Shown: in pieces, positions 5,997 through 59,263 of the stretch
Numbering within the stretch: position 1 is the first letter of the stretch
How the letters are laid out: each line of letters opens with the position of its first letter
Source of the DNA: a virus
Lineage: Duplodnaviria; Caudoviricetes
DNA length: 60,919 nucleotides
Direction: 5' to 3' (one strand)
IMG/VR virus record: IMGVR_UViG_3300042991_000522
Coordinates: 1-60,919 of that record
Notes under the pieces: generated by a model
Told to the model about the DNA's origin: nothing
Databases searched by the model: none
The model's input: the letters and a program-made list of their open reading frames with translations, nothing else
Program-made: the position numbers and the translations under genes

Positions 5997-6711
5997 TTAA
6001 ATATTATATTTATTGACATGATCGCCCATTCCTACTAATGGTAATAGATAATTATATTTTTTTAAGCCATATTCTTTGGCTTTTTCAATTTCTTCAAGTT
6101 GTTCAGAATTTAATATTGGAGCATTTTTATGTATAATTATAACTTCATTTTTTCTTTCATCATTCCAAACTTTAATATTATATTTATCATTTAAATCTGA
6201 TTTTGCTATAATTTCTTTAATTGTTTTATAATCTTTCTCATTATTTCCTTCATCTCCCCATGTTCTTCTGCGATTATAATTAGTTTCAAAATATGGTTTA
6301 TTTATATATTGAGAATTTACCTGTTTTTCTAATTCTTCTGCTGTATGACTTTTTACACGATAATATGTGTTACCATTTCGACCTTTTGATTCAAAATCAC
6401 CAAAATTTTTATTTTTAAAATAGTTATAAATAGCATCATAATCACTATCAACAGCCATTTAAAATATTTCATGTAATTCTTTTGTTACTGTATCTATTAT
6501 TGGATTATATTGTGATTCTGTTTGATTAGTAAATCCAAAAAAAGGCATTGAGTATTTATATTCTATTTTATTTGTTATTTCTTTAAATAGGTCTATAAAT
6601 TTATAATAATCTTCGAAGTAATATGATAATTTTTTTTAAGTTAGAAAACAGAGTTCTAATATCATAAATATATTCTTTATTATAATTTTCGTATTTTTTT
6701 AGGTATTTCAC
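5997..6711 (-). pseudogene. class A gene disrupted by a homopolymer frameshift (~6630) and an in-frame TAA before 6458
   Basis: GTG at 6711 gives MKYLKKYENY; ORF 5997..6458 ends VNKYNI. Confidence 0.6.
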
Positions 6712-6715
6712 AGAT

Positions 6716-6760
6716 TATATATTATTTTTAAAAAATAAATTTTTATTTATATATATAATA
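6716..6760. promoter_or_regulatory. divergent TATATAA motifs (putative phage late promoters)
   Basis: AATATATAAT on - before GTG 6711; TATATATAATA on + before ATG 6763. Confidence 0.45.
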
Positions 6761-6762
6761 TT

Positions 6763-7113
6763 ATGAAATATACTAAATCATTTGAAGATTTTAATGGTAA
6801 ACAAATAACATCACCAGAAATAAATTCAATAGTGAAGTTTAGTGGTTGGAGGTTTAATAAAGATTATTATCCTTGTGATGTTTATATAATTAGTGGTCAA
6901 TATTTATCTGGTGGTAGAGTGAGTAATTTTTGGTATTGGAAAAGAATTTTACCTAATGGTGATTTATCAGAAGAAGAACACGGATATGGTGATTTTTATA
7001 CACCTTTGGTTGATATGACATCAACATATACACCAGAAGAAATTAAAGAAATATATCCTGCTAAATATAAGGAATATGAATTGAGTAAGGATGCAAAAAA
7101 ATATAATATATGA
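6763..7113 (+). CDS. class A protein (MKxxKxFE...KYNI)
   Basis: MKYTKSFE...AKKYNI. Confidence 0.8.
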   Translation: MKYTKSFEDFNGKQITSPEINSIVKFSGWRFNKDYYPCDVYIISGQYLSGGRVSNFWYWKRILPNGDLSEEEHGYGDFYTPLVDMTSTYTPEEIKEIYPAKYKEYELSKDAKKYNI

Positions 7114-7418
7114 TAGCAAATTTTGATAACTTTATAAAAGATGGTAATTATTATCATGGTTTAATTGGTGGACTTTGGGGTGATTTAAGGTCAACTTCAC
7201 CACTACGAAAGAACATTCAAAAATATTTTTTTGAAAAGTATCCACGTAAAGTTAATATATTAAACTCAAGTGGCTCAATAAATTCTATAACCTTAGGTAT
7301 TTTAATAAAATTTGCAAATAAGAGAAAAGATGAAGAATTATTAAGATTAATTCAAGTTTTTTTAGATCGTGTTGAAGAAATTAGAATTGAAAAAGAAGCA
7401 AAAAAATATAACATATAA
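7110..7418 (+). CDS. class A protein
   Basis: MIANFDNF...AKKYNI. Confidence 0.8.
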   Translation: MIANFDNFIKDGNYYHGLIGGLWGDLRSTSPLRKNIQKYFFEKYPRKVNILNSSGSINSITLGILIKFANKRKDEELLRLIQVFLDRVEEIRIEKEAKKYNI

Positions 7419-7421
7419 TAC

Positions 7422-7676
7422 GTGGAACATTTGAAAAGATATAAAAATAAATACTATAAAAAAGGTGATTATGTATATGTAGCATATGATAATTACTTAC
7501 CTTACGCTAAAATTATAGATAGGGCGGGTATTAGTTATAATGTATTAATATATACAATATACGATGATTTGCTTGACGATGCTTGGTTTTCTGAAGAATC
7601 AATCATTAGAAGCCTTATATCATCAGAAATTGAAGAGTTTGAATTAAAATTAGCAGTAAATAAATATAACATATGA
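7422..7676 (+). CDS. class A protein, KxGDxV core
   Basis: GTG start EHLKRY, KKGDYVYV...NKYNI. Confidence 0.75.
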   Translation: MEHLKRYKNKYYKKGDYVYVAYDNYLPYAKIIDRAGISYNVLIYTIYDDLLDDAWFSEESIIRSLISSEIEEFELKLAVNKYNI

Positions 7677-8101
7677 AACATTTAAAATCATATGAATCAA
7701 CAAGTAAGTATAATTGGAAGAATATTTATGAAGAGGATGGTAAATTATATATTAATGTATATAAGTTAATATATGAAATGGAAGAAACAGTGAGAGATTT
7801 GGGTAAAAATGAAATATTAAAAAAGGAAGATGAATATAGATATTTACTTGAGACATCATTTATCGGTAAGGTGATAAGTTTTCAATGTTCTGATTGTGGT
7901 GAAACTCATACAGGTATTTGTGAAGATGTAGAGTTTCATACTGGATTCGAAGATCCAGGTAACAATAGATTTCAGGTTGATTTTATACAATTTGTGATAG
8001 AAGATATTGATGATTCACATGCTATTGATGATGATAAGATAACTGTACATTTAGATATTGATCCAGAATTATATAGAAATATAAAAAGGTATAATATATG
8101 A
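7673..8101 (+). CDS. class A protein
   Basis: MKHLKSYE...KRYNI. Confidence 0.8.
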   Translation: MKHLKSYESTSKYNWKNIYEEDGKLYINVYKLIYEMEETVRDLGKNEILKKEDEYRYLLETSFIGKVISFQCSDCGETHTGICEDVEFHTGFEDPGNNRFQVDFIQFVIEDIDDSHAIDDDKITVHLDIDPELYRNIKRYNI

Positions 8102-8433
8102 TAATAGATAGATTTGGAGACTATAAAGAGCCCAATATTGGTGACTATGTTATTTGTTCAGATAATGAGGATTTTTTGAGTGCTGATGATAATGTTACCA
8201 GTAAAAATATTAATTATTATTTGGAAGTTAATGTTGGTAAAATAATAGCAAAGAATGAATTTGGTTTTGATTATATTGTCGGATATAATAATATACCAAA
8301 AGATATATCTAATTATTTTTTACATTTTGGGTATAAAAATTCCAGAGGTTTTAACTCCAACGAAATTGTAAAATTTTCAAAAGATAGAATTGAATTAGAA
8401 CTCTCATTGTCAACAAAAAAATACAATATTTAA
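8098..8433 (+). CDS. class A protein
   Basis: PNIGDYVIC...TKKYNI; paralogue of 9711 and 11515 genes. Confidence 0.8.
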   Translation: MIIDRFGDYKEPNIGDYVICSDNEDFLSADDNVTSKNINYYLEVNVGKIIAKNEFGFDYIVGYNNIPKDISNYFLHFGYKNSRGFNSNEIVKFSKDRIELELSLSTKKYNI

Positions 8434-8456
8434 AATAAATTCTAAAAATTTTTAAT

Positions 8457-8464
8457 TATATTTG
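8457..8464 (+). promoter_or_regulatory. TAnnTTTG promoter element
   Basis: TATATTTG(CA) upstream of ATG 8477. Confidence 0.65.
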
Positions 8465-8476
8465 CAATAAAAAAGT

Positions 8477-8719
8477 ATGATAAAGGCGGGTACTAAATTT
8501 GTTGTTCATAAATATGGAGATACAGAATATACTATATCTAAAGTGTATGAATATTCTTGCGACATTAAATGGAATGAAGATGGTTTTGATAATAGTGTTT
8601 CTTATAAAATTCAAGAAGTTGAAAAATATTTCAAAGACAATATATGGATTAATAGTTTAGCTTATGATAGAAGAAATAAATTAGATAGATTAAAAAATTT
8701 ATGGAACAATAATGCATAA
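8477..8719 (+). CDS. class B small protein
   Basis: RRNKLDRL. Confidence 0.75.
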   Translation: MIKAGTKFVVHKYGDTEYTISKVYEYSCDIKWNEDGFDNSVSYKIQEVEKYFKDNIWINSLAYDRRNKLDRLKNLWNNNA

Positions 8720-8990
8720 GAATTTTTATATACAATGTAATAATAGTGAGGAATTTATATTTGCTCAAAAATATTTATTTAAAAATAAATATTTATGGTA
8801 TAGTTCTGGTGAAGTTGTTAAACCTACATCTAGAATTTATCCGATATATTTATATGATGCAGATAATAGTGATAGTGATAGTTTAAGATTTCTTTATCTC
8901 AATTCAAATACTTTGGTATTAAATAAAAAATTGTTTGATATTAAAATAGAGATGAGAAAAGAAAAATTGAGCAATTTAGATTTATTGTAA
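8712..8990 (+). CDS. class B small protein
   Basis: RKEKLSNL. Confidence 0.75.
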   Translation: MHKNFYIQCNNSEEFIFAQKYLFKNKYLWYSSGEVVKPTSRIYPIYLYDADNSDSDSLRFLYLNSNTLVLNKKLFDIKIEMRKEKLSNLDLL

Positions 8991-9103
8991 TTTTTCTGGA
9001 TGACAAACGTTTTCTTTTTTACTAACTTTAAAATCACATTTTTTACATTTAAATTTAGGTGAATCAACTTTGTTATTTTTTTATCTTTACACGCTTTTGT
9101 CAT
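8982..9103 (-). pseudogene. small Cys-rich peptide, apparently frameshifted in A-runs
   Basis: Adding one A in each of two A-runs gives MTKACKDKKNNKVDSPKFKCKKCDFKVSKKENVCHPEKLQ; ATGA-coupled to the upstream gene. Confidence 0.35.
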
Positions 9104-9409
9104 AAATTATATTTTTTAGATTTAACATACAGGTTTAAAAAATTTTTGCAATCATCTAATTTTTTTTGACGTAAACAACACATTTGGTATATATTTATCA
9201 ATTTTACATTCTGATTTTATATCTGACACATCAGTATCATTAATTTCATCTGTGTCATTGTCATATTTGCATAGCATATGATATATTACACTATCACCTT
9301 TATAGTTAGCAATACGGTCAATAAAATAATCTTTATTTTCATGAACATACACTGTGTATTTTTTAATATCTTTTTTATTATAAAGTTCGTATATTTTTAA
9401 GTGTTTCAT
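9100..9409 (-). CDS. class A protein with frameshift in an A8 run (9160-9167)
   Basis: MKHLKIYE; removing one A gives ...TSKKLDDCKNFLNLYVKSKKYNL*. Confidence 0.7.
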
Positions 9410-9714
9410 ATATTATATTTATTAGCTGTTAATTTTATTTCTAATTCTTCTTTTTCTTTTGTTGTTGCTTTTCTTTCAATAAAAGTTTTATCTAAATAAA
9501 AATTTATAATACCACTTAATGTTGAAACCGCTATAGTATAATTATAATTACTATTACCATTAATTATTTTACCACAATTAAATAATCCTTTATATACATC
9601 TTTCCAATGATTCATGTATTTATCTTTAAAAATAATATAATCTCCTATTTTCAATTTTACTTTATATTTATCTAATTCAATAATATGTTTTTCGTATGCT
9701 TTAAGGTATTTCAT
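9406..9714 (-). CDS. class A protein
   Basis: MKYLKAYE...KIGDYI...ANKYNI. Confidence 0.8.
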   Translation of the reverse strand: MKYLKAYEKHIIELDKYKVKLKIGDYIIFKDKYMNHWKDVYKGLFNCGKIINGNSNYNYTIAVSTLSGIINFYLDKTFIERKATTKEKEELEIKLTANKYNI

Positions 9715-10085
9715 ATATTATATTTTTCAGAATCTTTTTTAACTTTCATAATTTCAATTTCTTCTGGTGTTGCCAATCTAATAAGGTTCTCTTTATCTGC
9801 TGTGAAAATTTCACCTTGCTCTTTTAATCCATCTGTCATCGAACCCATATATCTTGTATATTTAAAAATATTTTTTGGTACATTATCATACCTAACATTA
9901 TAAAAGTAATATTTTTTTCCAAATTTATTAAATTCTATATTATGTATTTGACCTATATTGTTATTTAGAAAATCTTTTATTTCATTATGTATATTTTCTC
10001 TGGGTGTTAATTTAACGTAATCACCAACTTTGAATTTTGCATCTGATAAATTTGTAAAATATTCATATGTTTTTAAGTGTTTCAT
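9711..10085 (-). CDS. class A protein
   Basis: MKHLKTYE...KVGDYV...EKYNI. Confidence 0.8.
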   Translation of the reverse strand: MKHLKTYEYFTNLSDAKFKVGDYVKLTPRENIHNEIKDFLNNNIGQIHNIEFNKFGKKYYFYNVRYDNVPKNIFKYTRYMGSMTDGLKEQGEIFTADKENLIRLATPEEIEIMKVKKDSEKYNI

Positions 10086-10393
10086 ATATTATATTTATTT
10101 AAATCTTTTTTCATTTTTATAAAATCTTGTAAATTCCAATAATTATCAGATGTATATACTTTAAATAAATTTGCTCTAAACTCTCCATTTTCTGTTGTAA
10201 AATATAAATCTGATCTAAAATCACGTCTGCTAATAATTGTTCCTTTATTAGTATGATCTCCTACTCCTAATTGCGATAAACCACCATTAAAATTTGTATA
10301 AAAACCATTCCATAATACATCAACCAATTTAATATTTGATGGTAGAGGTTCGCTTTTTATTATATTTTCTTCATATGTTTTTAAATGTTTCAT
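10082..10393 (-). CDS. class A protein
   Basis: MKHLKTYE...NKYNI. Confidence 0.8.
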   Translation of the reverse strand: MKHLKTYEENIIKSEPLPSNIKLVDVLWNGFYTNFNGGLSQLGVGDHTNKGTIISRRDFRSDLYFTTENGEFRANLFKVYTSDNYWNLQDFIKMKKDLNKYNI

Positions 10394-10788
10394 ATGTTAT
10401 ATTTATTTGAGTTTAATAATATTTCAAAATTATTAGTATTTAGTTTGGTATTTCTATCAAACTTAAATGAAAAATCATAATCATTTTCATACATTAATTC
10501 CATAGTTATTGAAAAATATTTTATTAGAGTATCATTTATAGTATATTTTGGATTGTAAACATTAAATGTTAATACTTTAGCGATTGTGTGAATAAATATA
10601 TGTGAAATTAGTTCTGTGAAATCGGAATTACTATTTTCATATAATGAAATTTTATTATTATTAGAAATATATACTGAATATTGATGATGTTTATCATCAA
10701 CTTTTTTAATTATTTTATTGAGAAATTTAACTATAGATTTATTATCTATAGTATAATTATTTTGTTCATATGCTTTAATGTATCTCAT
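10390..10788 (-). CDS. class A protein
   Basis: MRYIKAYE...NKYNI. Confidence 0.8.
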   Translation of the reverse strand: MRYIKAYEQNNYTIDNKSIVKFLNKIIKKVDDKHHQYSVYISNNNKISLYENSNSDFTELISHIFIHTIAKVLTFNVYNPKYTINDTLIKYFSITMELMYENDYDFSFKFDRNTKLNTNNFEILLNSNKYNI

Positions 10789-11126
10789 TATATATTATAT
10801 TTTTCTGCGTCAATTTCTGCTTCAGCTTTAATGTCCCAAGCAATACTAAATTTTTTAGCTTTTTTTGGTCCAACACACCAACTTAACACATCATCAAAAT
10901 AATGTTTTTCCATATCTGTAAATTGACCATCTTTTAATCTTTCTTTTTTATATTCTTTCCAAGAGAGATGTCTAAATTTATTACCAGTTCTAGATAAAAT
11001 TACCATTATATTTCTAGCTATTGTTTCATGTTCTGATTTTCTAAAAACGGAATTCCTTGGATTAACTTTTGCGAAATCTGATGGTTTCAACTCAATATAA
11101 TTTTCGTATTTTTTTAGATATATCAT
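10788..11126 (-). CDS. class A protein
   Basis: MIYLKKYE...EKYNI. Confidence 0.8.
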   Translation of the reverse strand: MIYLKKYENYIELKPSDFAKVNPRNSVFRKSEHETIARNIMVILSRTGNKFRHLSWKEYKKERLKDGQFTDMEKHYFDDVLSWCVGPKKAKKFSIAWDIKAEAEIDAEKYNI

Positions 11127-11518
11127 ATGTTATATTTTTTTGCATTTTTATATAAATCAAAATTATCTCTTGTAACATTCTCCCCGCTTAATTTTAATTC
11201 ATAAAACATTTCAGCATCTTCTAAACTATCTGCTTCAAACAATAACCCAGTCACCATATTTCTTTTCCAATAAGAAAGACTCACTTTATTACCTTTATAC
11301 GTATAACTAGTTTTAACAGAATTTGTAAAAAAATCATAATAATTACCATCGGTTCTTCTAATTGCATCATAGTATATAGAACCATTTAAAATGCTATTAA
11401 TTTTTATAATAGCTAATGTTATTCCAAGACCGTATCTTGCTGGAGCTTTCCAAACATAATATTTTTTATCAATATTAGTTTCTTTATATCTGGATTCATA
11501 TGTTTTTAAATATTTCAT
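11123..11518 (-). CDS. class A protein
   Basis: MKYLKTYE...AKKYNI. Confidence 0.8.
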   Translation of the reverse strand: MKYLKTYESRYKETNIDKKYYVWKAPARYGLGITLAIIKINSILNGSIYYDAIRRTDGNYYDFFTNSVKTSYTYKGNKVSLSYWKRNMVTGLLFEADSLEDAEMFYELKLSGENVTRDNFDLYKNAKKYNI

Positions 11519-11826
11519 ATATTATATTTATTTGCTGCTAATCTTAATTTTAATTTTTCTTTTGATTTATCAAAATCAACAATTCTATCCATATCAAATG
11601 TTCGTGCACCATTAAATCCAAACCATTTTTCTAATTCGGGAGGTGGATTGTCATACACCACTTTTACATTCTCTGTATATTTATATGCTATTTTACCTAT
11701 ATTATTATTAATAAAATTATTCACAACATCTTTGAGTACATACATTTTTAAATCTATTCTTACTAACACATAATCTCCAACTTCTGGTTCCTTATTTAAA
11801 TCTTCAAACATTTTAATATGTTTCAT
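11515..11826 (-). CDS. class A protein
   Basis: MKHIKMFE...EVGDYV...ANKYNI. Confidence 0.8.
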   Translation of the reverse strand: MKHIKMFEDLNKEPEVGDYVLVRIDLKMYVLKDVVNNFINNNIGKIAYKYTENVKVVYDNPPPELEKWFGFNGARTFDMDRIVDFDKSKEKLKLRLAANKYNI

Positions 11827-11873
11827 GTATTATATATTAAAAATAATAATTATAAAAAAATTATATATAAGTT

Positions 11874-12182
11874 ATGAGGATTTTAAAAACATATGAAGAG
11901 TTGAACTATTATGGTAAAAGTGAAAAATTTTTTAGAGATTTATCTAAAAATAAACCAAATTATAAAGAAGGTGATTATATAAAATTTATAGGACCAGATA
12001 AACGAGGACTAGATAAAAATGAAATATATGTTGTTGATGATATTACACTTGATAATGTTGGAGATCCAATTATGCCAGATTATTATTACTTTACCAGATT
12101 AAACAACGGATATAATATATATTCTGGTAAATTAAGAGCATTGATAGATTATGAAGCATCTATAATAAAATATAATATATAA
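11874..12182 (+). CDS. class A protein
   Basis: MRILKTYE...KEGDYI...IKYNI; TATATATAA upstream. Confidence 0.8.
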   Translation: MRILKTYEELNYYGKSEKFFRDLSKNKPNYKEGDYIKFIGPDKRGLDKNEIYVVDDITLDNVGDPIMPDYYYFTRLNNGYNIYSGKLRALIDYEASIIKYNI

Positions 12183-12185: not shown

Positions 12186-12554
12186 CTATTGGTTAATTTC
12201 TATTAATTTTTCAACTTTTTGTTTTCTTATGTTATTTACGTATTTTGATATATAATTTAAATACGTTTGGTGATTGTAATCTTTTGATTTAGACATTAAA
12301 TTTTTAATTTCAACTATTTCTTTTAGTGTTGGTAATCTATACGCATAATTAGCTTCTTCTCCTATTACATATTTTTCGAATTGATACATTCCACCGTCTT
12401 CATTAAAAGTTAAACCTAAATATACAATACCAGGAAAATTATAGCAATTATATACACCTATTGCTGTTCTCCCAGATTTATAAATTCTAACTATCAAATC
12501 TCCCGATTTAGCTTTAATAAGATCTCTATGGTATTTAATTTTTTTAATTCTCAT
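12186..12554 (-). CDS. class B protein
   Basis: RKQKVEKL. Confidence 0.7.
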   Translation of the reverse strand: MRIKKIKYHRDLIKAKSGDLIVRIYKSGRTAIGVYNCYNFPGIVYLGLTFNEDGGMYQFEKYVIGEEANYAYRLPTLKEIVEIKNLMSKSKDYNHQTYLNYISKYVNNIRKQKVEKLIEINQ

Positions 12555-12816
12555 TTATTTTTTCAAGTTTTGCTTTTCTGTTGCATTTTATATCTAAATC
12601 TAAATATATAGAAGATATTCTACTATCATCAAAATTTGAATCTGGTATAGGTTCTACAACCTCTATTATTCTAAAGCCATTGAAATCTAATTCTCCTGTT
12701 ATTTTTGCAACTGTAAATATCTTATCGGTATACCACTTTGGTATAACACCGTTTGTTTTAGATAGTATTATATTTAAATTCATTCTAACTTTTGAACCAA
12801 CTATCAAATTATTCAT
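12544..12816 (-). CDS. class B protein
   Basis: VGSKV...PKWY...RKAKLEKI. Confidence 0.75.
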   Translation of the reverse strand: MNNLIVGSKVRMNLNIILSKTNGVIPKWYTDKIFTVAKITGELDFNGFRIIEVVEPIPDSNFDDSRISSIYLDLDIKCNRKAKLEKINEN

Positions 12817-12849
12817 CCAATTCTTTTAATTGTTTTTCAAAATCTGTTA

Positions 12850-13119
12850 TTATTTTTTATGATATTTTATTCTATTTTCTATGCGATTTACTTCCTCTTT
12901 TTTTATAGTTTCTTTGGATTTTAATATTTCTGCTATTGATATTGAAAATATCATAATCAAAGCAATAAACAAGCAACCAATAAAAAAGTATGTAACATAT
13001 TTTGGTTCTAAATCTAGTTCAGCAAAATCATTTCTAAATATTATACTCATTGTTATAACTACAATAATATACAATAAGAGTAATGAATGTTTAATCTTAT
13101 GTGTTGTTGTTTTTTTCAT
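12850..13119 (-). CDS. small membrane protein (2 TM)
   Basis: two hydrophobic segments, in operon. Confidence 0.65.
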   Translation of the reverse strand: MKKTTTHKIKHSLLLLYIIVVITMSIIFRNDFAELDLEPKYVTYFFIGCLFIALIMIFSISIAEILKSKETIKKEEVNRIENRIKYHKK

Positions 13120-13610
13120 TATTTTAAAATTTTTAATTTTTCTTTTCTAAGTTGAGACTCATTATAAAAGTAATGATATTTTTTAACTTTATTCTTTTTT
13201 TGATTTAATTTTTCGGCTTTCAATTTTAATTTTTTAATTTCCGAATTAACTAAATTATCAACAGAATTTTTTGATTGATTAATATTATATGATTTATCAC
13301 AAAAAAATTTAGTAAAATGAGTAATGTATATAAAACTTGATATTAAAATAATATACGGTATTATTAATAATAAAAAAACTTTATTTAATTCATGTTCATA
13401 AATAATTTTAATAATTTCTTTAATAAGTACCAGTGTATAAAAACCAATTATAATATATGATATAACAACAAATGAATTATCAGTATATTTTGATTTGTCT
13501 GTAAAATTAGACCAAAAACCAATTTTTGTTTTTTTCTGAATATAGAATTTGTTGTTTGTTTCACAAATTCTATATTTTGATTTTATTTGCTCAAAAGTTT
13601 TTATTAGCAT
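13119..13610 (-). CDS. class B membrane protein (2 TM)
   Basis: YRICE..FYIQKK...RKEKLKIL; TATATTTG at 13626-13633 (-). Confidence 0.75.
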   Translation of the reverse strand: MLIKTFEQIKSKYRICETNNKFYIQKKTKIGFWSNFTDKSKYTDNSFVVISYIIIGFYTLVLIKEIIKIIYEHELNKVFLLLIIPYIILISSFIYITHFTKFFCDKSYNINQSKNSVDNLVNSEIKKLKLKAEKLNQKKNKVKKYHYFYNESQLRKEKLKILK

Positions 13611-13695
13611 ATTATTTTTTATTTACAAATATAATAAAAATATTAATTAAAAAATAATATCAGTAAAAAAACATTTTTATAAATATATATAATGA

Positions 13696-14061
13696 ATGGT
13701 TTATGATATAGTATCGTTTGAAGATAATGAAAGCAACATAAAATATTTAGAGATTATTATAAGAAAACTTGGCTATAGTCATATTAATTTTATATTTCCA
13801 CAAAAGGGTATAGACTATGTTATGAATAATCACAAAACTATCAAATTAATATTAATGGATATAATGTTACCAGAGATTGATGGTAATGAAGTTATAAAAA
13901 TAATAAAGGCTGTTTATCCTGAAATACCTATAATTGTACAAACTGCTTTAATATCAAGTGAAGATAGATATGATTCTTTTGCTGCTGGATGTGATGGCTT
14001 TATAACTAAACCTATAAATAAAAATAGATTATCTTCTATGATAAAATCATTTGTTAAATAA
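13696..14061 (+). CDS. stand-alone response regulator receiver (CheY-like)
   Basis: ED, LILMDIMLPEIDG, QTA, AGCDGFITKP motifs. Confidence 0.9.
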   Translation: MVYDIVSFEDNESNIKYLEIIIRKLGYSHINFIFPQKGIDYVMNNHKTIKLILMDIMLPEIDGNEVIKIIKAVYPEIPIIVQTALISSEDRYDSFAAGCDGFITKPINKNRLSSMIKSFVK

Positions 14062-14220
14062 TTGTTTCATTTTAGTTTTTCTGATTTCGTTATTGGTAGG
14101 TGAACATTCACCTTCATTAAATATACATTTGCCACCGCATGTTAAACTTTTTTTGTGCAAAAATGCATGTGAACACGAATCTCCTAAACAATTTTTATAA
14201 TTACTACATCTAACTTTCAT
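14047..14220 (-). CDS. class B Cys/His-rich 57-aa protein
   Basis: Manual: MKVRCSNYKNCLGDSCSHAFLH...RKTKMKQL; similar to 17088 and 17284 genes. Confidence 0.7.
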   Translation of the reverse strand: MKVRCSNYKNCLGDSCSHAFLHKKSLTCGGKCIFNEGECSPTNNEIRKTKMKQLFNK

Positions 14221-14598
14221 TTAATTTATCTAATTTTTCTTTTCTTTGAAATTTTATAGGTAAATTATCTATTATTTTTTTTTAAGTTTATTTAAATCAG
14301 AAGAATTTTCTTTATAATATGATATTTCTTTTAATTTTAATTTTAATTTTTTGTTTTCTATTCTTAATTTTTTATTAAATAAAAATGAAAATTTAAATTT
14401 AACAGGATAAATATCATATTCATAATTTTCCCATTTAGATGCACCTTTAAATATAATCTCAAATCTATTATTATATGCATATATAATAACATTATTTTTA
14501 CTAAAACCATTGTTCCAATCTTTTTCAACATCAGAATTAAGAATAAGTTCTATTACGTATTTATTTACTTTTTCTTTTAATTCTTCTACTTTTTCCAT
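14210..14598 (-). CDS. class B protein with frameshift in an A9 run (14275-14283)
   Basis: Corrected frame continues ...LPIKFQRKEKLDKLNES*. Confidence 0.65.
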
Positions 14599-15051
14599 TT
14601 ATGATAATTTTTTTAATTTATCTCTTCTTTCTGCCTGTTCAGATAAATAATGTATTTTAAAATTTCTTCTTTTCTCTTTTATTTTTTTTAAATTTTCAGA
14701 ACGTGACTTTTTTTCTGCTTTTTTTTCATTCTTCATTATTTCTTTAATTTCTTCTTCATTTATTTCACGTGTAATAAAAACTAAAGTTTGATCATATGAA
14801 TTAAATTTTCTTTTTTTAGAGTATCTAATTAAAAGAAATATAATACTTAATAATAATACCACCAAAAAAAGTGTATGATTAAAAATAGAAGCAATTAAAA
14901 ACCCTAAAATAACAAAAAATAGTATAGATACAGTTATAAAAATTGTTTCGGTGGTATCATACATATATACCCAACCAAACATTTTACGTTTTTTTTGTAT
15001 AAAAAATTTATCCTTTTCTATAATTCTATAATAATCTTTTTTATTTTTCAT
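14599..15051 (-). CDS. class B membrane protein (2 TM)
   Basis: YRIIE..FFIQKK...RRDKLKKL. Confidence 0.75.
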   Translation of the reverse strand: MKNKKDYYRIIEKDKFFIQKKRKMFGWVYMYDTTETIFITVSILFFVILGFLIASIFNHTLFLVVLLLSIIFLLIRYSKKRKFNSYDQTLVFITREINEEEIKEIMKNEKKAEKKSRSENLKKIKEKRRNFKIHYLSEQAERRDKLKKLS

Positions 15052-15244
15052 GTTTTTCTATTTTTTGAATTTTTGATCTTCTTAATTCTTTAAAGTATTC
15101 ACATCTAATATATTTATCGTTACAAAAATCATAATGCATAAATCTACTTGCATATTGTATATTTTGAACATCTATATTTATCATATAATTTAAATATCTG
15201 CCAGTTTTTTTATTTCTAAAAACAAATAAGAATTCACTTTTCAT
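15041..15244 (-). CDS. class B small protein
   Basis: RNKKTGRY...RRSKIQKI. Confidence 0.7.
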   Translation of the reverse strand: MKSEFLFVFRNKKTGRYLNYMINIDVQNIQYASRFMHYDFCNDKYIRCEYFKELRRSKIQKIEKHEK

Positions 15245-40939: not shown

Positions 40940-40941
40940 TT

Positions 40942-50309: not shown

Positions 50310-50324
50310 AAAAAAATTATAAAA

Positions 50325-50792
50325 ATGAAACACGTAAAAAGTTTTGAAAGATTAACTTCAGATGAAGTATTTGATATATTTAAAGATACATATAATCAAA
50401 ATCCATTAAAAGAGGATCATGATTTTTATATATTTTTAGCTGGTGAAAAATTTGAAGAAGCTGAAAATGGTTTATATAAAAAAGTTTTAGATATTGAAAA
50501 TATGGTGAGAATTAAACTAGATAAAGAAAGTGTTGGTGCTATGCAAGGATTAAAAATGAGAGCAATGACTCAACAAGGTGTTAAAATGTATCATATTTGG
50601 TTACCAAATGATATTAGAGAACTAGTTGATGGTAAAGGTTCCAATAGTATTGAATCATGGTTAGTTGATTTAATAGATAAACATAAACAAACTGGTTCTG
50701 ATGATCATGGTAAAAAAATATATAAGGAAGTTATAAATAAACACGAAGAAAGAGAAAAGATAAAAAAAGATTCAAACAGATATAATATATGA
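50325..50792 (+). CDS. class A protein
   Basis: MKHVKSFE...NRYNI. Confidence 0.8.
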   Translation: MKHVKSFERLTSDEVFDIFKDTYNQNPLKEDHDFYIFLAGEKFEEAENGLYKKVLDIENMVRIKLDKESVGAMQGLKMRAMTQQGVKMYHIWLPNDIRELVDGKGSNSIESWLVDLIDKHKQTGSDDHGKKIYKEVINKHEEREKIKKDSNRYNI

Positions 50793-51262
50793 AGCACATT
50801 AAATATTTTAAAGAAAAAAAAGAAGTTGAATATCATGATATTGATGATATATTAAAACACTATCTTGAGGCTGCATTATGGACAAATGAAGGAGATGAAG
50901 GTTTTGAAGATAAAACTATTTATGATTTCTCTGAAGAATCAACAAATAACGCAAAAAATGAAATAGAATGGTTTGTAAAAAGTGCAGGAAAATATATTAA
51001 TGATATAAGTGACGAAAGTATTGGACATGATATATGGCTAACTAGAAATGGACACGGTACTGGTTTTTGGGATAGAGGATATTCTGATAAAAAAACCACA
51101 CTTTTTAATCATCTGTGTGACATATTAGGTTCTGCTGATGCTTATGTTGGTGACGATGAAAAAGTTTATATTAATAGTTATCAAGAACTTCCTGAATTTG
51201 ATTTATACACTTATATGAAAGAATTAAAATTTAAAGGTGACATTAAAAAATATAATGTATAA
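50789..51262 (+). CDS. class A protein
   Basis: MKHIKYFKE, GHDIWLTRNGHGTGFWDR core, ends KKYNV. Confidence 0.8.
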   Translation: MKHIKYFKEKKEVEYHDIDDILKHYLEAALWTNEGDEGFEDKTIYDFSEESTNNAKNEIEWFVKSAGKYINDISDESIGHDIWLTRNGHGTGFWDRGYSDKKTTLFNHLCDILGSADAYVGDDEKVYINSYQELPEFDLYTYMKELKFKGDIKKYNV

Positions 51263-55016: not shown

Positions 55017-55826
55017 ATGAAAAAATATTATATTTATGTATATTTAGATCCAAGAAAAAGTGAAAATTATAATTATTCAGATTTGAATTTTGAATATGAA
55101 CCATTCTATGTCGGAAAAGGAATAGATGATAGATATAAATATCATTTAACTGATAAAAGAAGAAATAAATTAAAAATAAACAAAATAACAAAAATATTAG
55201 AAAGTGGTTATGAACCTATAATAATAAAACTATATGAAAATTTAACAGAAGAGGAAGCATTTGATAAAGAAAAAATGGTCATAGATAAAATAGGTAAATA
55301 TATTAATAATAATGGTCCATTAACAAATATATTAGATGGCGGTAATGTGTTTAATTATTCTGAAATATCAAAAGATAATATAAGAAAAAACCACAAAACT
55401 AAAGAATATAGAGAAAAAATGAGTAAGAAAATGACTGGAATTGTTAATATAACAGATGATATAAAACAAAAAATTAGTAAATCATTAAAATCAAAAAATT
55501 TAAAAAGAAGTGATGAGACAAAATCAAAAATAAGTTATGCTAATAAAAATAGAAAACATAGTGATCAATCAAGAAAAAATATGAGTTTATCTCACATCGG
55601 AATATCTATAATACAATTTAAATATATTTTAATTTCACCCACTAATGAAATATATATTTTTATTGGTGAGGATGAGTTAGCTAAGTTTATTAAAGAAAAT
55701 AATATGTCATATAGTTTGATTATTAATAATATTAATAAAGAAAAAATTACAATAAAAAGAAAAACAAGTAAAACATTAAATACTGAAAATTGGATTTCTA
55801 AAAAAGAAAAATATGATAGAATATAA
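55017..55826 (+). CDS. GIY-YIG-like homing endonuclease with NUMOD3 repeats
   Basis: YYIYVYLDP, PFYVGKG..R, LTNI.DGG; SDETKSKIS, HSDQSRKNMS. Confidence 0.8.
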   Translation: MKKYYIYVYLDPRKSENYNYSDLNFEYEPFYVGKGIDDRYKYHLTDKRRNKLKINKITKILESGYEPIIIKLYENLTEEEAFDKEKMVIDKIGKYINNNGPLTNILDGGNVFNYSEISKDNIRKNHKTKEYREKMSKKMTGIVNITDDIKQKISKSLKSKNLKRSDETKSKISYANKNRKHSDQSRKNMSLSHIGISIIQFKYILISPTNEIYIFIGEDELAKFIKENNMSYSLIINNINKEKITIKRKTSKTLNTENWISKKEKYDRI

Positions 55827-56926: not shown

Positions 56927-57312
56927 AAAATTAAAATTATGAATAGAGGAAAAGATCCGCCGTCATTATATTAATATAATAATTTAATAATATAATAGAT
57001 AGCCAAAAAAGCAAAAAAGTTAGAATAATAGATAAAAAAATAAAATAACAAATAAAAATTACAAATATGAATAAAGGACACGATCCTCCCAAGAGGTAAA
57101 CTATAATATATAATAAATAAAGATAAAAGAAGCCAAAAAAGCAAATAGATAATAAGGCTAACAATATATAAAACCAAACCAAAATTTAATTTTGGCTGTT
57201 AGATTAAAGGTTATATTTAATGAGATAGTAAAAGACTGACAAAATATCCGTTACAATAATACCGAACCAAGATTTAAAAGTCTATCTTGGCTGTCAGAAT
57301 AGATAGGTATAA

Positions 57313-57340
57313 AAAAAGCCACCTCGATAGGTGGCTTTTT
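57313..57340. terminator. bidirectional intrinsic terminator
   Basis: AAAAAGCCACCT-CGAT-AGGTGGCTTTTT between convergent units. Confidence 0.85.
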
Positions 57341-57346
57341 CCATTT

Positions 57347-58210
57347 TTAATTTATATTAAAATCAGATATTTTTTCAGCTTCAATATCTTTCCAATTTTT
57401 ACCTCTAATTATATTATTTAGACTTGAACTTGATATATTAAAAAAATTTTTAATTTTTTTCTTATCTGTATTATTCTCAATTAAATATTTAATGTGTTTA
57501 ACTTCTTTTTCAATTAAAACTGAATTTTTCCTTATATTTTTATTAGACTCAAAAATATTTTTATAATATTTTATTTCATCGTTTGTTAACTTTTCGGTTA
57601 TTATTAAATATTTCCATCTTATATTATATTTTATATTACCAATTGTTCTAAAATTAACATTAAAAAATTTAGATATATCAGTTATACTTAAATCGGAATT
57701 TAACATTTTTTTAATTATAATTACTTCATTTTCTTTTAATTTTGATAAATGATTATTATTTTCACCACAGCATATACCTATTCTATTATTTGCCATTTTA
57801 ATTTTTGATTCCACAGAAAAAATTCTATTTTTTGATTTTTCTCCTATTTTTATTTTAGTTTCATCTGTGTGTTTATATCCATTAGTGGTGGATTCAACAA
57901 TAGGAACTATATTAAATCCATTATCGCACGAATTATATAAATCTATATAATATTGTTCTTTAATTAATAAGTCTTCTATTTTTTCAACAATTTCAATAAT
58001 TTCAAATTCTAAATTATTTATTCCATGTTTATTTGAAAATCTTTGTAATTTAAAATTCCTATGATAATTACCAACTAAACACTCAAAATGATGAAGATTT
58101 CTACCATATAAATTTTTAGTTGATCCAATATATATTTTATTATCAATTAAACTTTTAATTTTATAGACACCATATATATTATTGTATTCACTTCTTTTTA
58201 GTGTTTTCAT
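57347..58210 (-). CDS. GIY-YIG homing endonuclease with NUMOD3 and HTH repeats
   Basis: GVYKI...KIYIGST, HTDETKIKI, two KL.E.EV..IK repeats; start revised to MKTLKR. Confidence 0.85.
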   Translation of the reverse strand: MKTLKRSEYNNIYGVYKIKSLIDNKIYIGSTKNLYGRNLHHFECLVGNYHRNFKLQRFSNKHGINNLEFEIIEIVEKIEDLLIKEQYYIDLYNSCDNGFNIVPIVESTTNGYKHTDETKIKIGEKSKNRIFSVESKIKMANNRIGICCGENNNHLSKLKENEVIIIKKMLNSDLSITDISKFFNVNFRTIGNIKYNIRWKYLIITEKLTNDEIKYYKNIFESNKNIRKNSVLIEKEVKHIKYLIENNTDKKKIKNFFNISSSSLNNIIRGKNWKDIEAEKISDFNIN

Positions 58211-58211
58211 A

Positions 58212-58751
58212 TTAATTATATAAATCTTTAAATATCTCATCAATTTTCCATTTAGGCATATCTAAATTTATTTTATCTAAAACATCTCTAAACTTATTTT
58301 CTTCAGATATTTGTTCAGTTAAAAACCATTGAGCAAATTCAAATGTTGTACTATCATCTTCTTCTTTAGAAATTCTTGAAATTTCTTCCCATTCAGTTGA
58401 AACTAGCATCTCATGTTTTAATGATTCTCTTAAAACTTCCTCAATTGAATCAAAATCCTGTTTAACTTCCTCTGTAACTGGAACTTTAGCTACAACATTT
58501 CTATTAAATAAATACTGATAAACTTTATCCATATGAGTTAATTCTTCTTGAGCAGCTTTAAAATAGTATTTTGCACCATCAACCCATCCTGCATTATCTA
58601 GCCAACAAGACATAGCCCTGTAAATTTGTGATGATTGCAATTCATTCTTAATTTGTTTATTTAACAACTCTGTTATTTTATTTGGCAATCTACCTTCATC
58701 TTCGATATTTTCAAATAAACTAAATTTTACTATTCTATTCCTGGTTTTCAT
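58212..58751 (-). CDS. ftn: non-heme ferritin with N-terminal extension
   Basis: LNKQIKNELQSSQIY.AMS.W, EELTHM, HE, QWFLTEQISEE ferroxidase pattern. Confidence 0.9.
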   Translation of the reverse strand: MKTRNRIVKFSLFENIEDEGRLPNKITELLNKQIKNELQSSQIYRAMSCWLDNAGWVDGAKYYFKAAQEELTHMDKVYQYLFNRNVVAKVPVTEEVKQDFDSIEEVLRESLKHEMLVSTEWEEISRISKEEDDSTTFEFAQWFLTEQISEENKFRDVLDKINLDMPKWKIDEIFKDLYN

Positions 58752-58768
58752 ATCTTATTGTATTTTTT

Positions 58769-59263
58769 TTATATATTATATTTCCTATAATCTAACATCC
58801 ACCTACAAGCATCTTTAACTGTATCTGTTACCAAATCACCCATTGAGATAAGTCTATTTTTATATTTTGTTGGTTCTTTTTCTAACAATTTTATCAATTT
58901 TTTTTCCATTTTATTATCTAAATTTAAAGCTTTCATTTTAGAATCAATAATATTAAATGCTGAATTTCTAATTTGTGGTGCTGTTATTGATGTACCTTTA
59001 GATTTAAATTGAGTATCAATTTGATAGAATATATTATTTGAATCATATTTTTTACTAGTTAGCATATCTTCAAATATACTCTTATAATCAAAATCAGCAT
59101 CATAAAAATCACTATATGTTAATTTATTTATATTACCATCAATATCAATATTTTTAATAAAATTTGTAATAAATATTTTTAATTCTTTACTATCTTCTTC
59201 ACCTAAATATTTATATTTGGATTTTCTTTCATATCTATCTTCAAATTTCTTTATAAATTTCAT
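58769..59263 (-). CDS. class A protein
   Basis: MKFIKKFE...RKYNI. Confidence 0.8.
   Translation of the reverse strand: MKFIKKFEDRYERKSKYKYLGEEDSKELKIFITNFIKNIDIDGNINKLTYSDFYDADFDYKSIFEDMLTSKKYDSNNIFYQIDTQFKSKGTSITAPQIRNSAFNIIDSKMKALNLDNKMEKKLIKLLEKEPTKYKNRLISMGDLVTDTVKDACRWMLDYRKYNI

Follow-up and report, generated by a model that had tools for sequence, protein, structure and literature searches.

The window analysed here, the whole 60,919-nucleotide stretch of viral DNA with a GC content of 21%, is a fragment of a Mahaphage-like megaphage of roughly 700 kb, a phage of Bacteroidota. When stop-to-stop frames of at least 40 codons are listed on both strands, the most common last-three-residue strings are YNI (34 frames), YNL (5) and then KNK (4). 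Forty frames end in YN[ILV], among them 49339-49485 (48 codons), a chance frame that is not counted as a gene. The C-tagged genes number 39 (34 YNI, 4 YNL and 1 YNV) and, together with two genes that have only the leader (9152-9409 on the minus strand and 40757-40939), make up the 41 class A genes, which form seven arrays (Table 1). The C-terminal tag is summarized by [K/R/N/Q]YN[I/L/V] in 39 of the 41, with LYNL and IYNI also represented, and the N-terminal leader, MK[H/Y][L/I]Kx[Y/F]E or a variant offset by one residue, is present in 38. The pattern M[KRI][HYFINK][LIVT][KE]x[YF][EDKN] fits 32 of the 41 genes, and the shifted leader, MI(K/T/A)x(F/Y)xx(F/Y)(E/N), is found in the six genes that start at 7110, 8098, 16530, 22281, 23318 and 38929.

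Table 1. Class A genes, associated TATATA motifs and intervening genes in the window.
Feature	Coordinates	Strand	Length	Remarks
Class A	5997-6458	-	153 aa	ends KYNI (ATT, TAA); ATG without leader; array-terminal; convergent with 5582-5995
ORF fragment	6601-6711	-	36 codons	GTG start; KYLKKYEN
TATATA promoter-like motif	6748-6757	+		5 nt upstream of ATG, array head 6763
Class A	6763-7113	+	116 aa	MKYTKSFE...KYNI; array head
Class A	7110-7418	+	102 aa	shifted leader MIANFDNF...KYNI
Class A	7422-7676	+	84 aa	GTG start; EHLKRYK...KYNI
Class A	7673-8101	+	142 aa	MKHLKSYE...RYNI
Class A	8098-8433	+	111 aa	MIIDRFGDY...KYNI (TAC, ATT); array-terminal; SH3-like subfamily
Class A	9152-9409	-	85 aa	MKHLKIYE; ends KKIR, without C-tag
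Class A	9406-9714	-	102 aa	MKYLKAYE...KYNI
Class A	9711-10085	-	124 aa	MKHLKTYE...KYNI; SH3-like subfamily
Class A	10082-10393	-	103 aa	MKHLKTYE...KYNI
Class A	10390-10788	-	132 aa	MRYIKAYE...KYNI
Class A	10788-11126	-	112 aa	MIYLKKYE...KYNI
Class A	11123-11518	-	131 aa	MKYLKTYE...KYNI
Class A	11515-11826	-	103 aa	MKHIKMFE...KYNI; array head; modelled with AlphaFold2
TATATA motif	11831-11836	-		4 nt upstream of ATG, head 11515-11826
TATATA motif	11862-11869	+		4 nt upstream of ATG of 11874
Class A	11874-12182	+	102 aa	MRILKTYE...KYNI; single gene, convergent end
TATATA motif	16086-16091	+		4 nt upstream of ATG, head 16096
Class A	16096-16533	+	145 aa	MKHIKTFE...KYNI
Class A	16530-16826	+	98 aa	shifted leader MITDFKIYE...LYNL (CTA TGA)
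Class A	16823-17119	+	98 aa	MKHLKSFE...KYNL (AAG TAC AAT TTA TAG); array-terminal, convergent
TATATA motif	22269-22276	+		4 nt upstream of ATG, head 22281
Class A	22281-23321	+	346 aa	shifted leader MIKKFTSFN...KYNI
Class A, ankyrin repeats, frameshift-split	23318-24315	+		23318-23443 starts MIAKYNIFE; frame 23422-24315 ends IYNI
Class A	24312-24668	+	118 aa	MKHLKKYE...KYNI
Class A	24665-24973	+	102 aa	MKNLKTYE...KYNL; array-terminal, convergent
TATATA motif	36037-36042	+		10 nt upstream of ATG, head 36053
Class A run of five genes	36053-38034	+		entire run missing from syntenic contig G004
Class A	36053-36403	+		MKHLEIYE...KYNI; array head
Class A	36400-36843	+		MKHLKIYE...NYNI
Class A	36840-37115	+		MKYLKRFE...KYNI
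Class A, ankyrin	37112-37663	+		MRYLKTYD...KYNI
Class A	37660-38034	+		MKYIKKFE...KYNL
NUDIX gene, not class A	38070-38651			inside array 36053-42384
Class A run, ~9-10 genes	38648-41427	+
Class A genes of this run, part 1	38648-38932, 38929-39210, 39207-39518, 39515-39808, 39808-40098	+
Class A genes of this run, part 2	40102-40461, 40458-40760, 40757-40939, 40942-41427	+
Class A, leader only	40757-40939	+		ends KTYA; G004 orthologue also without C-tag
ORF, not class A	41450-41791			inside array 36053-42384
TATATA motif	41811-41818	+		5 nt upstream of ATG of 41824
Class A	41824-42384	+	186 aa	MKYIKSYE...QYNI (CAA TAT AAC ATA TAA); convergent end
TATATA motif	49974-49981	+		16 nt upstream of ATG, head 49998
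Class A	49998-50309	+		MKYLKNYE...KYNI; head of three-gene array 49998-51262
Class A	50325-50792	+		MKHVKSFE...RYNI
Class A	50789-51262	+		MKHIKYFK...KYNV
Class A	58769-59263	-	164 aa	MKFIKKFE...KYNI; single gene, then ferritin-like gene
TATATA motif	59285-59290			21 nt upstream of 58769-59263 (-)

The initial annotation had described about 40 genes with only their ends in common, in seven arrays, and this picture holds, except that the second array begins at 9152 rather than 9100, that the array 36053-42384 includes two genes that do not belong to class A, and that the ankyrin-repeat member 23318-24315 proves to be split by a frameshift. The gene at 5997-6458 looks as if a break had left only its tail, since a short leader-bearing fragment on the minus strand, 6601-6711, lies upstream of it and is probably its severed leader. 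The consensus 23-mer at the gene junctions occurs 20 times at no more than three mismatches, compared with 0.00 times in 100 dinucleotide shuffles; the sharing of ends is real and far above chance expectation.

The terminal tags, which are previously undescribed, are widespread in giant phages. The 636-kb genome LR756504 encodes 16 leader genes, against 0 for a control pattern, and these leaders are also found outside arrays and in many synonymous variants; there is no excess of KYNI in this genome, and all 17 leader ORFs listed there lack the C-tag. In IMG/VR, at least 120 stretches match the leader, many of them on contigs of 100-500 kb. One subfamily by itself accounts for 3066 cluster representatives. 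Because the leader is present without the C-tag in LR756504 and on many of the 100-500 kb contigs, it is older and broader than the C-tag. Co-occurrence of the two tags, which the initial annotation had suggested examining in related phages, is strong (odds ratio 20.7 in 1651 ORFs); 111 of these ORFs carry just the leader and 74 just the C-tag. The two tags are separable, as LR756504 shows.

The middles of the class A proteins are as diverse as originally claimed. In an all-against-all BLASTP comparison of 45 sequences (41 class A and 4 neighbours), from which 9 N-terminal and 6 C-terminal residues were removed, a single pair was detected at E<1e-3. Pfam identifies ankyrin repeats in two of the 41 class A proteins and gives no significant match for the others, and 13 different PHROGs families are matched by one class A member each. 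On other megaphage contigs, the leader is fused to a SET domain (48.6 bits) and, in a gene that immediately follows the capsid gene, to an NFACT-R domain (64.6 bits). The tags thus sit on mutually unrelated domains. The single member that was modelled with AlphaFold2 (mean pLDDT 85.8 with an alignment of 21 sequences and 88.0 with 150) is predicted to be an SH3-like barrel with a C-terminal helix. Neither tag is placed in the model, with pLDDT below 50 for residues 1-8 and 2-8 of the leader in the two models and about 61 for the last block; the prediction is thus of two flexible tags that extend beyond the folded domain.

The gap between the TATATA motif and the ATG at array heads is 4-5 nt in six of nine cases and 10-21 nt in the other three. 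In relatives, TATATA is found 20-30 nt upstream of the portal, protease-scaffold and capsid genes. Homing endonuclease and other non-structural genes have it upstream as well; adjoining arrays of other small genes have a host-type TAnnTTTG motif instead. Given that this promoter-like motif is common to the head genes of relatives, we infer that the class A arrays are expressed late. The relatives behind this assignment share only 42-44% gp32 identity with the window phage. The TATATA-ATG spacing is bimodal, with modes at 4-5 nt and 18-24 nt. Leader genes prefer the short spacing (47 short vs 24 long, of 264 genes), whereas other ORFs, of 150 aa or longer, prefer the long one (40 vs 152, of 551), and most of the 165 additional short-spacing ORFs outside the strict leader pattern have leader-like N-termini, for example, MKILRFEEF, MRLKKYSQFNES and MNYIKLFEDF. 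The short spacing is thus linked to leader-like N-termini generally, and a translation-linked role would also account for it. In particular, the leader might be a peptide-level expression signal rather than an address tag, serving Shine-Dalgarno-independent, 70S-type initiation on leaderless mRNAs at array heads or by stop-start reinitiation within arrays, for instance by ensuring, as the nascent N-terminus, that early elongation proceeds; a gap of 4-5 nt is too short for any 5' untranslated region. We consider this unlikely, however: the most conserved leader positions are residue 5 (K), residue 7 (Y/F) and residue 8 (E), with residue 6 free, which resembles a recognition motif and not a codon ramp, and neither the C-tag nor its association with the leader is explained.

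Exposed and unstructured tags, as in the models, could also be recognized, as docking sites or degrons, by a chaperone or an AAA+ protease of the phage or its host, giving the accessory proteome a controlled lifetime or folding route. C-terminal degrons and PDZ ligands are typically fixed at the extreme C-terminus and end in an aliphatic residue, which is the form of the C-tag, and a 1184-aa protein encoded on a related fragment (G005) resembles an ATP-dependent protease (phrog_4871, 826 bits). Nevertheless, this gene lies on another fragment, and destroying about 40 late-made proteins would be costly, so that such a role seems improbable.

The tags could, alternatively, be a by-product of a signal that the junctions between genes carry in their nucleic acid (AAATATAATATATGAAACATTTAAAA) and that serves for stop-start coupling, as an internal promoter or in the recombination that shuffles cassettes, with the conserved residues being merely its translation. 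Apart from the recurrent 23-mer, 24 of the 39 C-tagged genes have a terminal ATA-TGA that overlaps the following ATG, ATA encodes the Ile in 30 of 34 cases (background about 50%), and array heads are preceded by non-coding DNA of the form TATATAATAT-ATG, a near-match to the coding junction. Gain and loss of cassettes in the arrays is fast, and shuffling mediated by conserved junctions has been described for T4-type hyperplastic regions (PMC2839356). However, the overlap with ATG demands only a final A in the last codon, and therefore the Tyr, the Asn and the aliphatic last residue are left unexplained. At the invariant Tyr and Asn of the 39 C-tagged genes, the minor codons TAC (2/39) and AAC (5/39) occur at about the background rate of 7-9%, whereas the first and second codon positions are invariant, with no non-synonymous change, and TATAAC, which would be ruinous to a -10-like box, is present five times. 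All the codon variants first reported for the C-tag (TAT/TAC, AAT/AAC, ATA/ATT/ATC/TTA/CTA/TTG/GTA) are present. The C-tag, as [K/Q]YN[I/L/V], is retained in all 10 array-terminal genes (last codons ATA 3, ATT 2, ATC 1, TTA 2, TTG 1 and GTA 1), five of which have a convergent neighbour and hence no downstream gene on the same strand. In metagenomic relatives, the tag is mainly KYNL or KFNL; among the best 150 of the 3066 profile matches, [YF]N[ILVM] is the ending of 145, with KYNL as the commonest form (104). Third codon positions of the leader are under no consistent constraint in a set of 191 leader genes drawn from the window and its relatives, and in LR756504 leaders occur outside arrays and without C-tags. 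Hence a junction signal as the sole cause is largely refuted and very unlikely, and selection acts on the tag peptide, as the initial annotation had argued.

Pairing of the two tags, to clasp the ends of one protein or to join separate proteins head to tail, with a Lys-Asn contact as a possible link, is very unlikely: each tag does combine a Lys with an aromatic, an aliphatic and a polar (Glu or Asn) residue, and the tags strongly co-occur, but AlphaFold2 docks neither tag on the domain or on the other tag with either alignment, and single-tag proteins are numerous, in LR756504 as in the 1651 ORFs.

In the best explanation, the class A library consists of small globular proteins that are unrelated to one another, with SH3-like barrels, ankyrin repeats and a large number of orphan folds among them. 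They are encoded in fast-changing arrays within megaphage accessory regions, carry two flexible peptide address tags, the N-terminal octapeptide M-K-[H/Y]-[L/I]-K-x-[Y/F]-E and the strictly C-terminal K-[Y/F]-N-[I/L/V], and would be delivered via the capsid, to which we assign a probability of about 0.4. Capsid loading is plausible but unproven. Under this scheme, the arrays would be transcribed from a late-type promoter of the phage itself, and a conserved phage component would recognize the leader and recruit class A proteins into the assembling prohead, in the manner of the capsid-targeting sequence (CTS) of T4 internal proteins; we infer this reader, the incorporation into the capsid and any cleavage. 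The virion would then carry an exchangeable library of accessory or anti-host proteins and deliver it together with the DNA. The leader would be the old, general signal, and the C-tag a second signal gained in some sub-clades, with a possible role in retention, docking or release.

The initial interpretation of the leader as a capsid-targeting and cleavage signal is partly supported. Relatives share the TATATA motif, and their head module is of T4 type, with the portal at 222 bits, Gp23 at 77-83 bits and, as a weak match, an S77 protease domain at 24 bits (cut-off 27); the window contig, from an uncultured phage, is without head genes of its own. PMC3012670 describes T4 internal proteins as a diverse set with the CTS as the sole common element, and class A proteins similarly share the leader, mostly with the C-tag, on unrelated middles. 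The leader, however, departs from the L/I-x-E site of T4 gp21: three residues ahead of its Glu, this clade has mainly T/K/S/A (T in 36, K in 18 and S in 7 of 81 leaders), and the first 25 residues show no enrichment of [LI]xE (13/38 class A vs 25/90 other ORFs). The claimed likeness of the leader to the T4 CTS, the sequence and single cleavage of which are described in PMC8442874, is not supported either: the T4-CTS-like heptad YSEY[I/L]AE is found in the scaffold domain of relatives (12-13 copies) and once near the N-terminus of the capsid protein but in no class A protein. Furthermore, T4 internal proteins are described as highly basic (PMC8442874), whereas the isoelectric points of class A proteins are spread evenly from 4.1 to 9.7. 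The numbers of C-tagged ORFs, 39 in the 61-kb window and 28, 17, 1, 9 and 2 in five related fragments, are very large for packaged cargo and count against capsid loading.

The proposed similarity to the hypervariable T-even IP loci, which also turn over quickly, is borne out. The genes that flank the arrays in the window are 72-76% identical to those of contig G004, from which the five-gene array 36053-38034 is absent, and of the run 38648-41427 the G004 array shares only two genes, the orthologues of those at 39515 and 40757. Class A arrays thus turn over fast between related phages.

The small genes designated class A lie in seven arrays and encode proteins that combine unrelated middle parts with two common termini, an N-terminal leader, MK[H/Y][L/I]Kx[Y/F]E, and a C-terminal tag (C-tag), K[Y/F]N[I/L/V]. 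In a survey of the window that covered every stop-to-stop frame of at least 40 codons, the most common frame endings were YNI (34) and YNL (5), followed by KNK (4). With one chance frame removed, 39 genes end in YN[ILV] and, together with two genes that carry the leader only, they make up a set of 41, in agreement with the initial annotation, which had claimed about 40 diverse genes sharing only their termini. The strict leader pattern is matched by 32 of the 41 genes, and six have a variant with a one-residue shift, such as MIKNFKIFE. The three genes outside both forms are 7422, which has a GTG start, 39207, whose leader MKILKFNE is a near-variant that fails the strict pattern, and 5997-6458, which is probably the tail of a broken gene. 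The middle parts are indeed unrelated: BLASTP among 45 tag-trimmed sequences detected one similar pair, Pfam identified ankyrin repeats in only two of the 41 proteins, and PHROGs gave 13 different single-member matches, nearly all of unknown function. Homology over the whole length was not found across class A, which argues against one paralogous family with conserved ends. The information content drops abruptly after residue 8 and before residue -4, and positions -15 to -5 show a weak amphipathic-helix signal, in a set that was chosen by the tag patterns and for which independent evidence comes from the flanking positions alone. At up to three mismatches, a junction 23-mer occurs 20 times in the window and never in shuffled sequence, an excess over the shuffled background that had been anticipated. 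Two class A loci look broken: a leader-bearing fragment at 6601-6711 (minus strand) lies apart from ORF 5997-6458, which ends in KYNI, and a frameshift near 23422-23443 splits the frame of the ankyrin gene 23318-24315. Both cases (5997-6711 and 23318-24315) may reflect decay or assembly errors.

The pair of terminal peptide tags on this hypervariable accessory proteome of megaphages is genuine, widespread and apparently undescribed. A junction scan of IMG/VR gave 22 loci from several samples, and 14 of them contain tagged arrays; among prokaryote genome contigs, the scan yielded 8 loci, none of them with tagged ORFs, and these matches were taken as chance in AT-rich DNA. Within class A, the SH3-like barrel subfamily is a true family, with profile matches to 3066 cluster representatives at E<=0.001, of which 605 reach E<=1e-10; the best 150 of the 3066 include 137 with the leader and 145 with the C-tag, and the ten clusters that were looked up are all unnamed. 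A word-index homologue search with 40458-40757 returned the query alone from 3 candidates, a blank that is due to the index and not to rarity, given that the exhaustive profile search gave thousands. No cultured or GenBank phage carrier of this subfamily was found by tblastn with two queries (40102-40458 and P0013), and in LR756504 and LR756501, which are more distant megaphage relatives, the profile gave weak matches only (best E 0.0012).

The leader is older than the C-tag. LR756504 contains 16 exact leader matches, against 0 for a control pattern, in ORFs of 67-354 aa that are scattered genome-wide and show many synonymous variants, and KYNI-stop in this genome is at the control level (3 vs 2); LR756501 has zero strict leader matches. 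The codon pattern of MKYLKx[Y/F]E was found in at least 120 IMG/VR stretches, many of them on contigs of 100-500 kb. Among the 1651 mechanically called ORFs (a count that includes spurious frames and misses short genes and non-ATG starts) of 118 such loci (1.02 Mb), all of these loci being ascertained by a leader pattern, 127 carry both tags, 111 the leader only, 74 the C-tag only and 1339 neither (odds ratio 20.7). The tags are thus separable, and the recurrence and co-occurrence that the initial annotation had proposed to look for in related phages are indeed observed. The ORF calling behind these co-occurrence counts, and behind the spacing, codon and fragment counts, took the first ATG and at least 50-60 codons, in some cases with greedy overlap removal. 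At closer range, the contig G004 is syntenic with the window at 26.5-41 kb, and the flanking proteins share 72-76% identity. Where the window has the five-gene array 36053-38034, G004 contains a single unrelated gene instead, and the next array consists of 10 genes in the window vs 6 in G004, with two orthologous pairs (55% and 64% identity). Nothing relevant to KYNI, KYNL, KFNL or KFNI was found in the article texts searched (the supplements of PMC7162821 may list huge-phage protein families); together with the Pfam and PHROG scans, this is the basis for considering the tags apparently undescribed, as had been claimed for KYNI. Both tags are absent from Pfam as well as from the searched literature.

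The GC content of the window is 0.20-0.29 throughout (2-kb windows). The encoded proteins include a T4-type gp32 (PF08804, 81.6 bits), a 1091-aa outer-membrane beta-barrel with a CarboxypepD_reg domain, a glycosyltransferase, a cytidylyltransferase, a NUDIX protein, a ferritin-like protein and products of several homing-endonuclease-like genes; no virion genes were recognised on the 60,919-bp contig. The nearest GenBank phage genes of gp32 are 42-44% identical and come from uncultured phages of 735,411, 636,363, 634,780 and 642,428 bp. According to excerpts of PMC7162821, Bacteroidetes are the predicted hosts of Mahaphage clade members larger than 634 kb. For five related IMG/VR fragments (38-65 kb), the completeness rating of 5-9% implies genomes near 700 kb.

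Many of the window's small genes have TTATTATATTTG-like sequences upstream, which match the Bacteroidota sigma-A -7 element TAnnTTTG. Two classes of upstream motifs are present, this host-type motif, located ahead of small-gene arrays other than class A, and a phage-type motif, T(T/A)ATATATAA, found upstream of every class A array head and of several further genes, among them homing endonucleases. TATATA is located 20-30 nt upstream of the portal, protease-scaffold and capsid genes in LR756504, LR756501 and four IMG/VR head-module loci, and because the same motif precedes these head genes of the relatives, it is predicted to be a late promoter. This comparison drew on the more distant relatives since no head genes were found in the five related fragments, where a Gp23 search gave one sub-threshold match, lying in no capsid gene, and a PHROG scan of 10 large proteins identified no structural gene.

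The head genes of LR756504, LR756501 and the IMG/VR loci are recognised by Portal_T4 (222 bits, the score of the T4-type portal in LR756504) and Gp23 (77-83 bits), with Peptidase_S77 at 18-25 bits, under the cut-off of 27. In LR756504, a 764-aa ORF starts with such a weak Peptidase_S77 match (24.7 bits), continues as 12-13 tandem 14-residue repeats, NLDKNIAYSEY[I/L]AE, and is followed by a Gp23-type capsid gene; the same protease-scaffold fusion is encoded in three IMG/VR loci. The T4 capsid-targeting sequence (CTS) is MKTYQEFIAE in an excerpt of PMC8442874. The repeat core YSEYIAE shares 5 of its 7 positions with this sequence and has a T4-type site, I-A-E, at its end, and SEYAE is found near the N-termini of the relatives' capsid proteins. 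The relatives appear to use T4-like head-maturation chemistry, and the similarity suggests that the T4 CTS mimics a scaffold repeat. Phage_sheath_1 was not found in LR756504. A 511-aa protein encoded downstream of the capsid gene in one of the loci (L221) was considered as a capsid paralogue and rejected, and in the relatives a homing-endonuclease-like gene is located between the portal and protease genes.

Loading of class A proteins into the prohead is the best single reading, with a rough probability of 0.4, and is based on the precedent of T4, the late-type motif and the relatives' T4-type head module. In the T4 internal proteins (IPs) IPI, IPII and IPIII and in Alt, as in class A, an N-terminus of ~8-10 residues ending in Glu is the sole shared part, the loci are hypervariable in both cases, and the lineage itself is T4-like in its gp32 (in the window) and its portal and capsid genes (in relatives). 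The differences are that there are ~40 class A genes in 61 kb vs three IPs and Alt in T4, that a second, C-terminal tag is present, that class A proteins are not uniformly basic (their isoelectric points are uninformative), and that packaging and cleavage, which are features of T4 IPs, are only putative in class A. The leader, moreover, is MKHLKTYE in class A, without an L/I-x-E site, vs MKTYQEFIAE in T4, and the T4-CTS-like heptad of these megaphages resides in the scaffold and not in class A.

The initial annotation had taken the leader for a capsid-targeting and cleavage signal. Of the features of T4-type CTS proteins, the short N-terminus common to unrelated proteins is present in class A, whereas the L/I-x-E site and the likeness to the T4 CTS were not found. 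Among 81 leaders, the residue three before Glu is T in 36, K in 18 and S in 7, as opposed to the frequent L or I in LR756504 leaders; within the N-terminal 25 residues, [LI]xE occurs in 13 of 38 class A proteins vs 25 of 90 other ORFs; and CTS-like E[YF][ILVA]AE is present in 0 class A proteins, as against the 12-13 copies of YSEY[IL]AE in the scaffold domains of the relatives. In phiKZ-like giant phages (SPN3US, 201phi2-1), according to excerpts of PMC5694885, a gp21-family prohead protease strips propeptides from ejection and inner-head proteins, diverged paralogues may have identical N-termini, cleavage occurs after Glu in small-residue-x-Glu, and T-F-E is reported as a cleavage site in 201phi2-1. 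Because of the latter report, cleavage after the leader Glu, where T-[Y/F]-E is the most common ending, is possible in class A but is not indicated. These phages are giant, as here, and have many head-internal proteins, but they belong to other lineages, most of their propeptides exceed 100 residues, only ~8 of ~50 head proteins are processed, and neither a C-terminal tag nor tandem arrays of tagged cassettes are present. Encapsulins load unrelated cargo into an HK97-fold shell, for which a short terminal peptide, frequently located at the extreme C-terminus, is sufficient. K[Y/F]N[I/L/V] is likewise terminal and attached to unrelated proteins, but the motif differs, and the shell is a bacterial nanocompartment rather than a phage capsid.

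A broader version of prohead loading is rather doubtful. In this version, a two-ended peptide address code, of which the N-terminal MK[H/Y][L/I]Kx[Y/F]E is ancient and the C-terminal K[Y/F]N[I/L/V] is younger, would load well over 100 interchangeable, fast-evolving accessory proteins per genome into the capsid for delivery with the DNA. If true, no phage is known with an arsenal of injected proteins that comes near this size, and the C-tag would represent a novel type of signal for cargo loading or release.

It is unlikely that the tags are a degron or an adaptor site. A related fragment, G005, encodes a 1184-aa ATP-dependent protease-like AAA+ protein (phrog_4871, 826 bits), which is a possible reader of exposed terminal tags. 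A role of the tags linked to translation is also improbable; its main support is the connection between the leader and promoter spacing. Six of the nine class A heads have TATATA ending 4-5 nt upstream of the ATG, and across the window and 118 IMG/VR loci (L081-L198) the spacing is sharply bimodal, at 4-5 nt and 18-24 nt. Short vs long spacing is found in 47 vs 24 of the leader genes (n=264) and in 40 vs 152 of the other long ORFs (n=551), and many further short-spacing genes show leader-like N-termini. The short spacing would imply that these megaphages have a sizeable class of late mRNAs that are leaderless or nearly so.

A signal at the DNA level had to be tested because 24 of 39 class A genes end in ATA-TGA, overlapping the next ATG, and the final Ile codon is ATA in 30 of 34 cases. 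However, the Y and N residues of the C-tag are invariant in the window set, whereas minor synonyms of their codons occur at the background rate (TAC 2/39, AAC 5/39; background 7-9%). The C-tag is kept in all 10 array-terminal genes, 5 of which face a convergent gene, and these genes have varied last codons and include 4 of the window's 5 L/V endings. The wider family mostly ends in KYNL (104 of the best 150 profile matches), with KFNL or KFNI in other contigs. No consistent constraint at synonymous sites was found in 191 leader genes (351 minus 160 that match an ascertainment pattern, a removal that biases residues 2-5 towards minor codons). Selection thus acts on the peptide, as the initial annotation had maintained, the ATA preference of the final Ile comes from the overlap with the next ATG, and the DNA-level explanation fails as the main cause of the tags; a junction signal as their pure cause is very improbable. 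The conserved junction could help cassette exchange as a side effect. PeSL cassettes in hyperplastic regions of T4-type phages resemble these arrays in their small variable ORFs, conserved junction and rapid gene turnover, but PeSLs, as presented in the titles and abstracts of PMC2839356 and PMC4122927, are non-coding promoter-terminator motifs between ORFs. In class A, the genes overlap and the conserved bases are coding and peptide-selected; non-coding promoters with stem-loop terminators were not found between the ORFs, and 24 of 39 junctions are 4-nt ATGA overlaps without intergenic DNA.

Two AlphaFold2 models of the SH3-like subfamily (class A gene 11515..11826, minus strand), built from alignments of 21 and 150 sequences (mean pLDDT 85.8 and 88.0, respectively), both have a small beta-barrel and, after it, a C-terminal helix (residues 89-100). 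Foldseek against PDB gave nothing at E<=0.001, with weak rows for SH3-like ribosomal proteins and MazF, and a fold search of the ESM Atlas returned only viral "hypothetical protein" clusters. The pLDDT is below 50 at leader residues 1-8 (or 2-8) and ~61 at the last three residues, and because these low-scoring termini lie outside the fold, the tags are predicted to behave as free, flexible linear motifs; that they pair with each other is hardly credible.

Huge phages contain hundreds of small orphan genes without a functional handle, a large share of which is marked here by two strictly positioned tags that are conserved over a clade of ~700-kb Bacteroidota phages and are borne by thousands of metagenomic protein clusters. 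The reader of the tags, whether it loads cargo, acts in translation or serves as a protease adaptor, would be a central, undiscovered part of megaphage biology. If the tags load capsids, the injected proteome of uncultured megaphages could be defined directly from sequence, and foreign proteins could be packaged with a portable tag, as was the case with the T4 CTS. The analysis also yields rules for annotation, which concern the two promoter classes, late genes that are probably leaderless, and the fusion of a repeat-built scaffold with the prohead protease.

Coordinates of features in the window and in related megaphage loci
Feature	Sequence	Position	Strand	Remark
Protease-scaffold fusion	L080 (LR756504)	9343-11637 (= LR756504 185342-187636)	minus	weak Peptidase_S77 + repeats
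Protease-scaffold fusion	L221	14970-17057		
Protease-scaffold fusion	L251	14587-16767		
Protease-scaffold fusion	L261	14609-16798		
Homing-endonuclease-like genes	window	28138-29289, 46842-47753, 49217-49951, 55017-55826, 57347-58240		
Class B small genes	window	1254-5475, 8477-8990, 12186-16027, 17088-21518	mostly minus	
TAnnTTTG ahead of other small-gene arrays	window	5582, 8477, 13119, 15830, 19785, 25272, 41450, 51315, 53839, 59350		
TonB-dependent-receptor-like barrel	window	29839-33114	minus	1091 aa
gp32 5' region	window	45790-45891		AAGGCTT(A/C)AA x3
AAA+ protein	L056 (G005)	7424-10975		
Leader-tagged SET-domain protein	L221	1557-2006		
Leader-tagged NFACT-R protein	L221	18945-19325		

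Several other genes deserve mention. Class B is a second population of small genes, the members of which often have MK(x)GDK or FKIGD at the start and a K/L-rich tail resembling KLxKLNE at the end; the host-type TAnnTTTG motif precedes those with an upstream gap, and class B genes are probably early. The five homing-endonuclease-like genes in 61 kb are DUF7487/TnsA-like, HNH-like and GIY-YIG, and several of them sit behind the phage-type motif. The TonB-dependent-receptor-like barrel shows 34.6% identity to its G004 counterpart, compared with 72-76% for its neighbours, and seems to evolve unusually fast. T4 gp32 is known for autoregulation; in the window, three copies of AAGGCTT(A/C)AA lie within 60 nt of the gp32 start codon and may be an operator for autoregulation. 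Finally, leader-tagged SET-domain and NFACT-R RNA-binding proteins are encoded near or inside the head module of another megaphage contig (L221), where the NFACT-R gene directly follows the capsid gene, and both are candidate host-directed factors.
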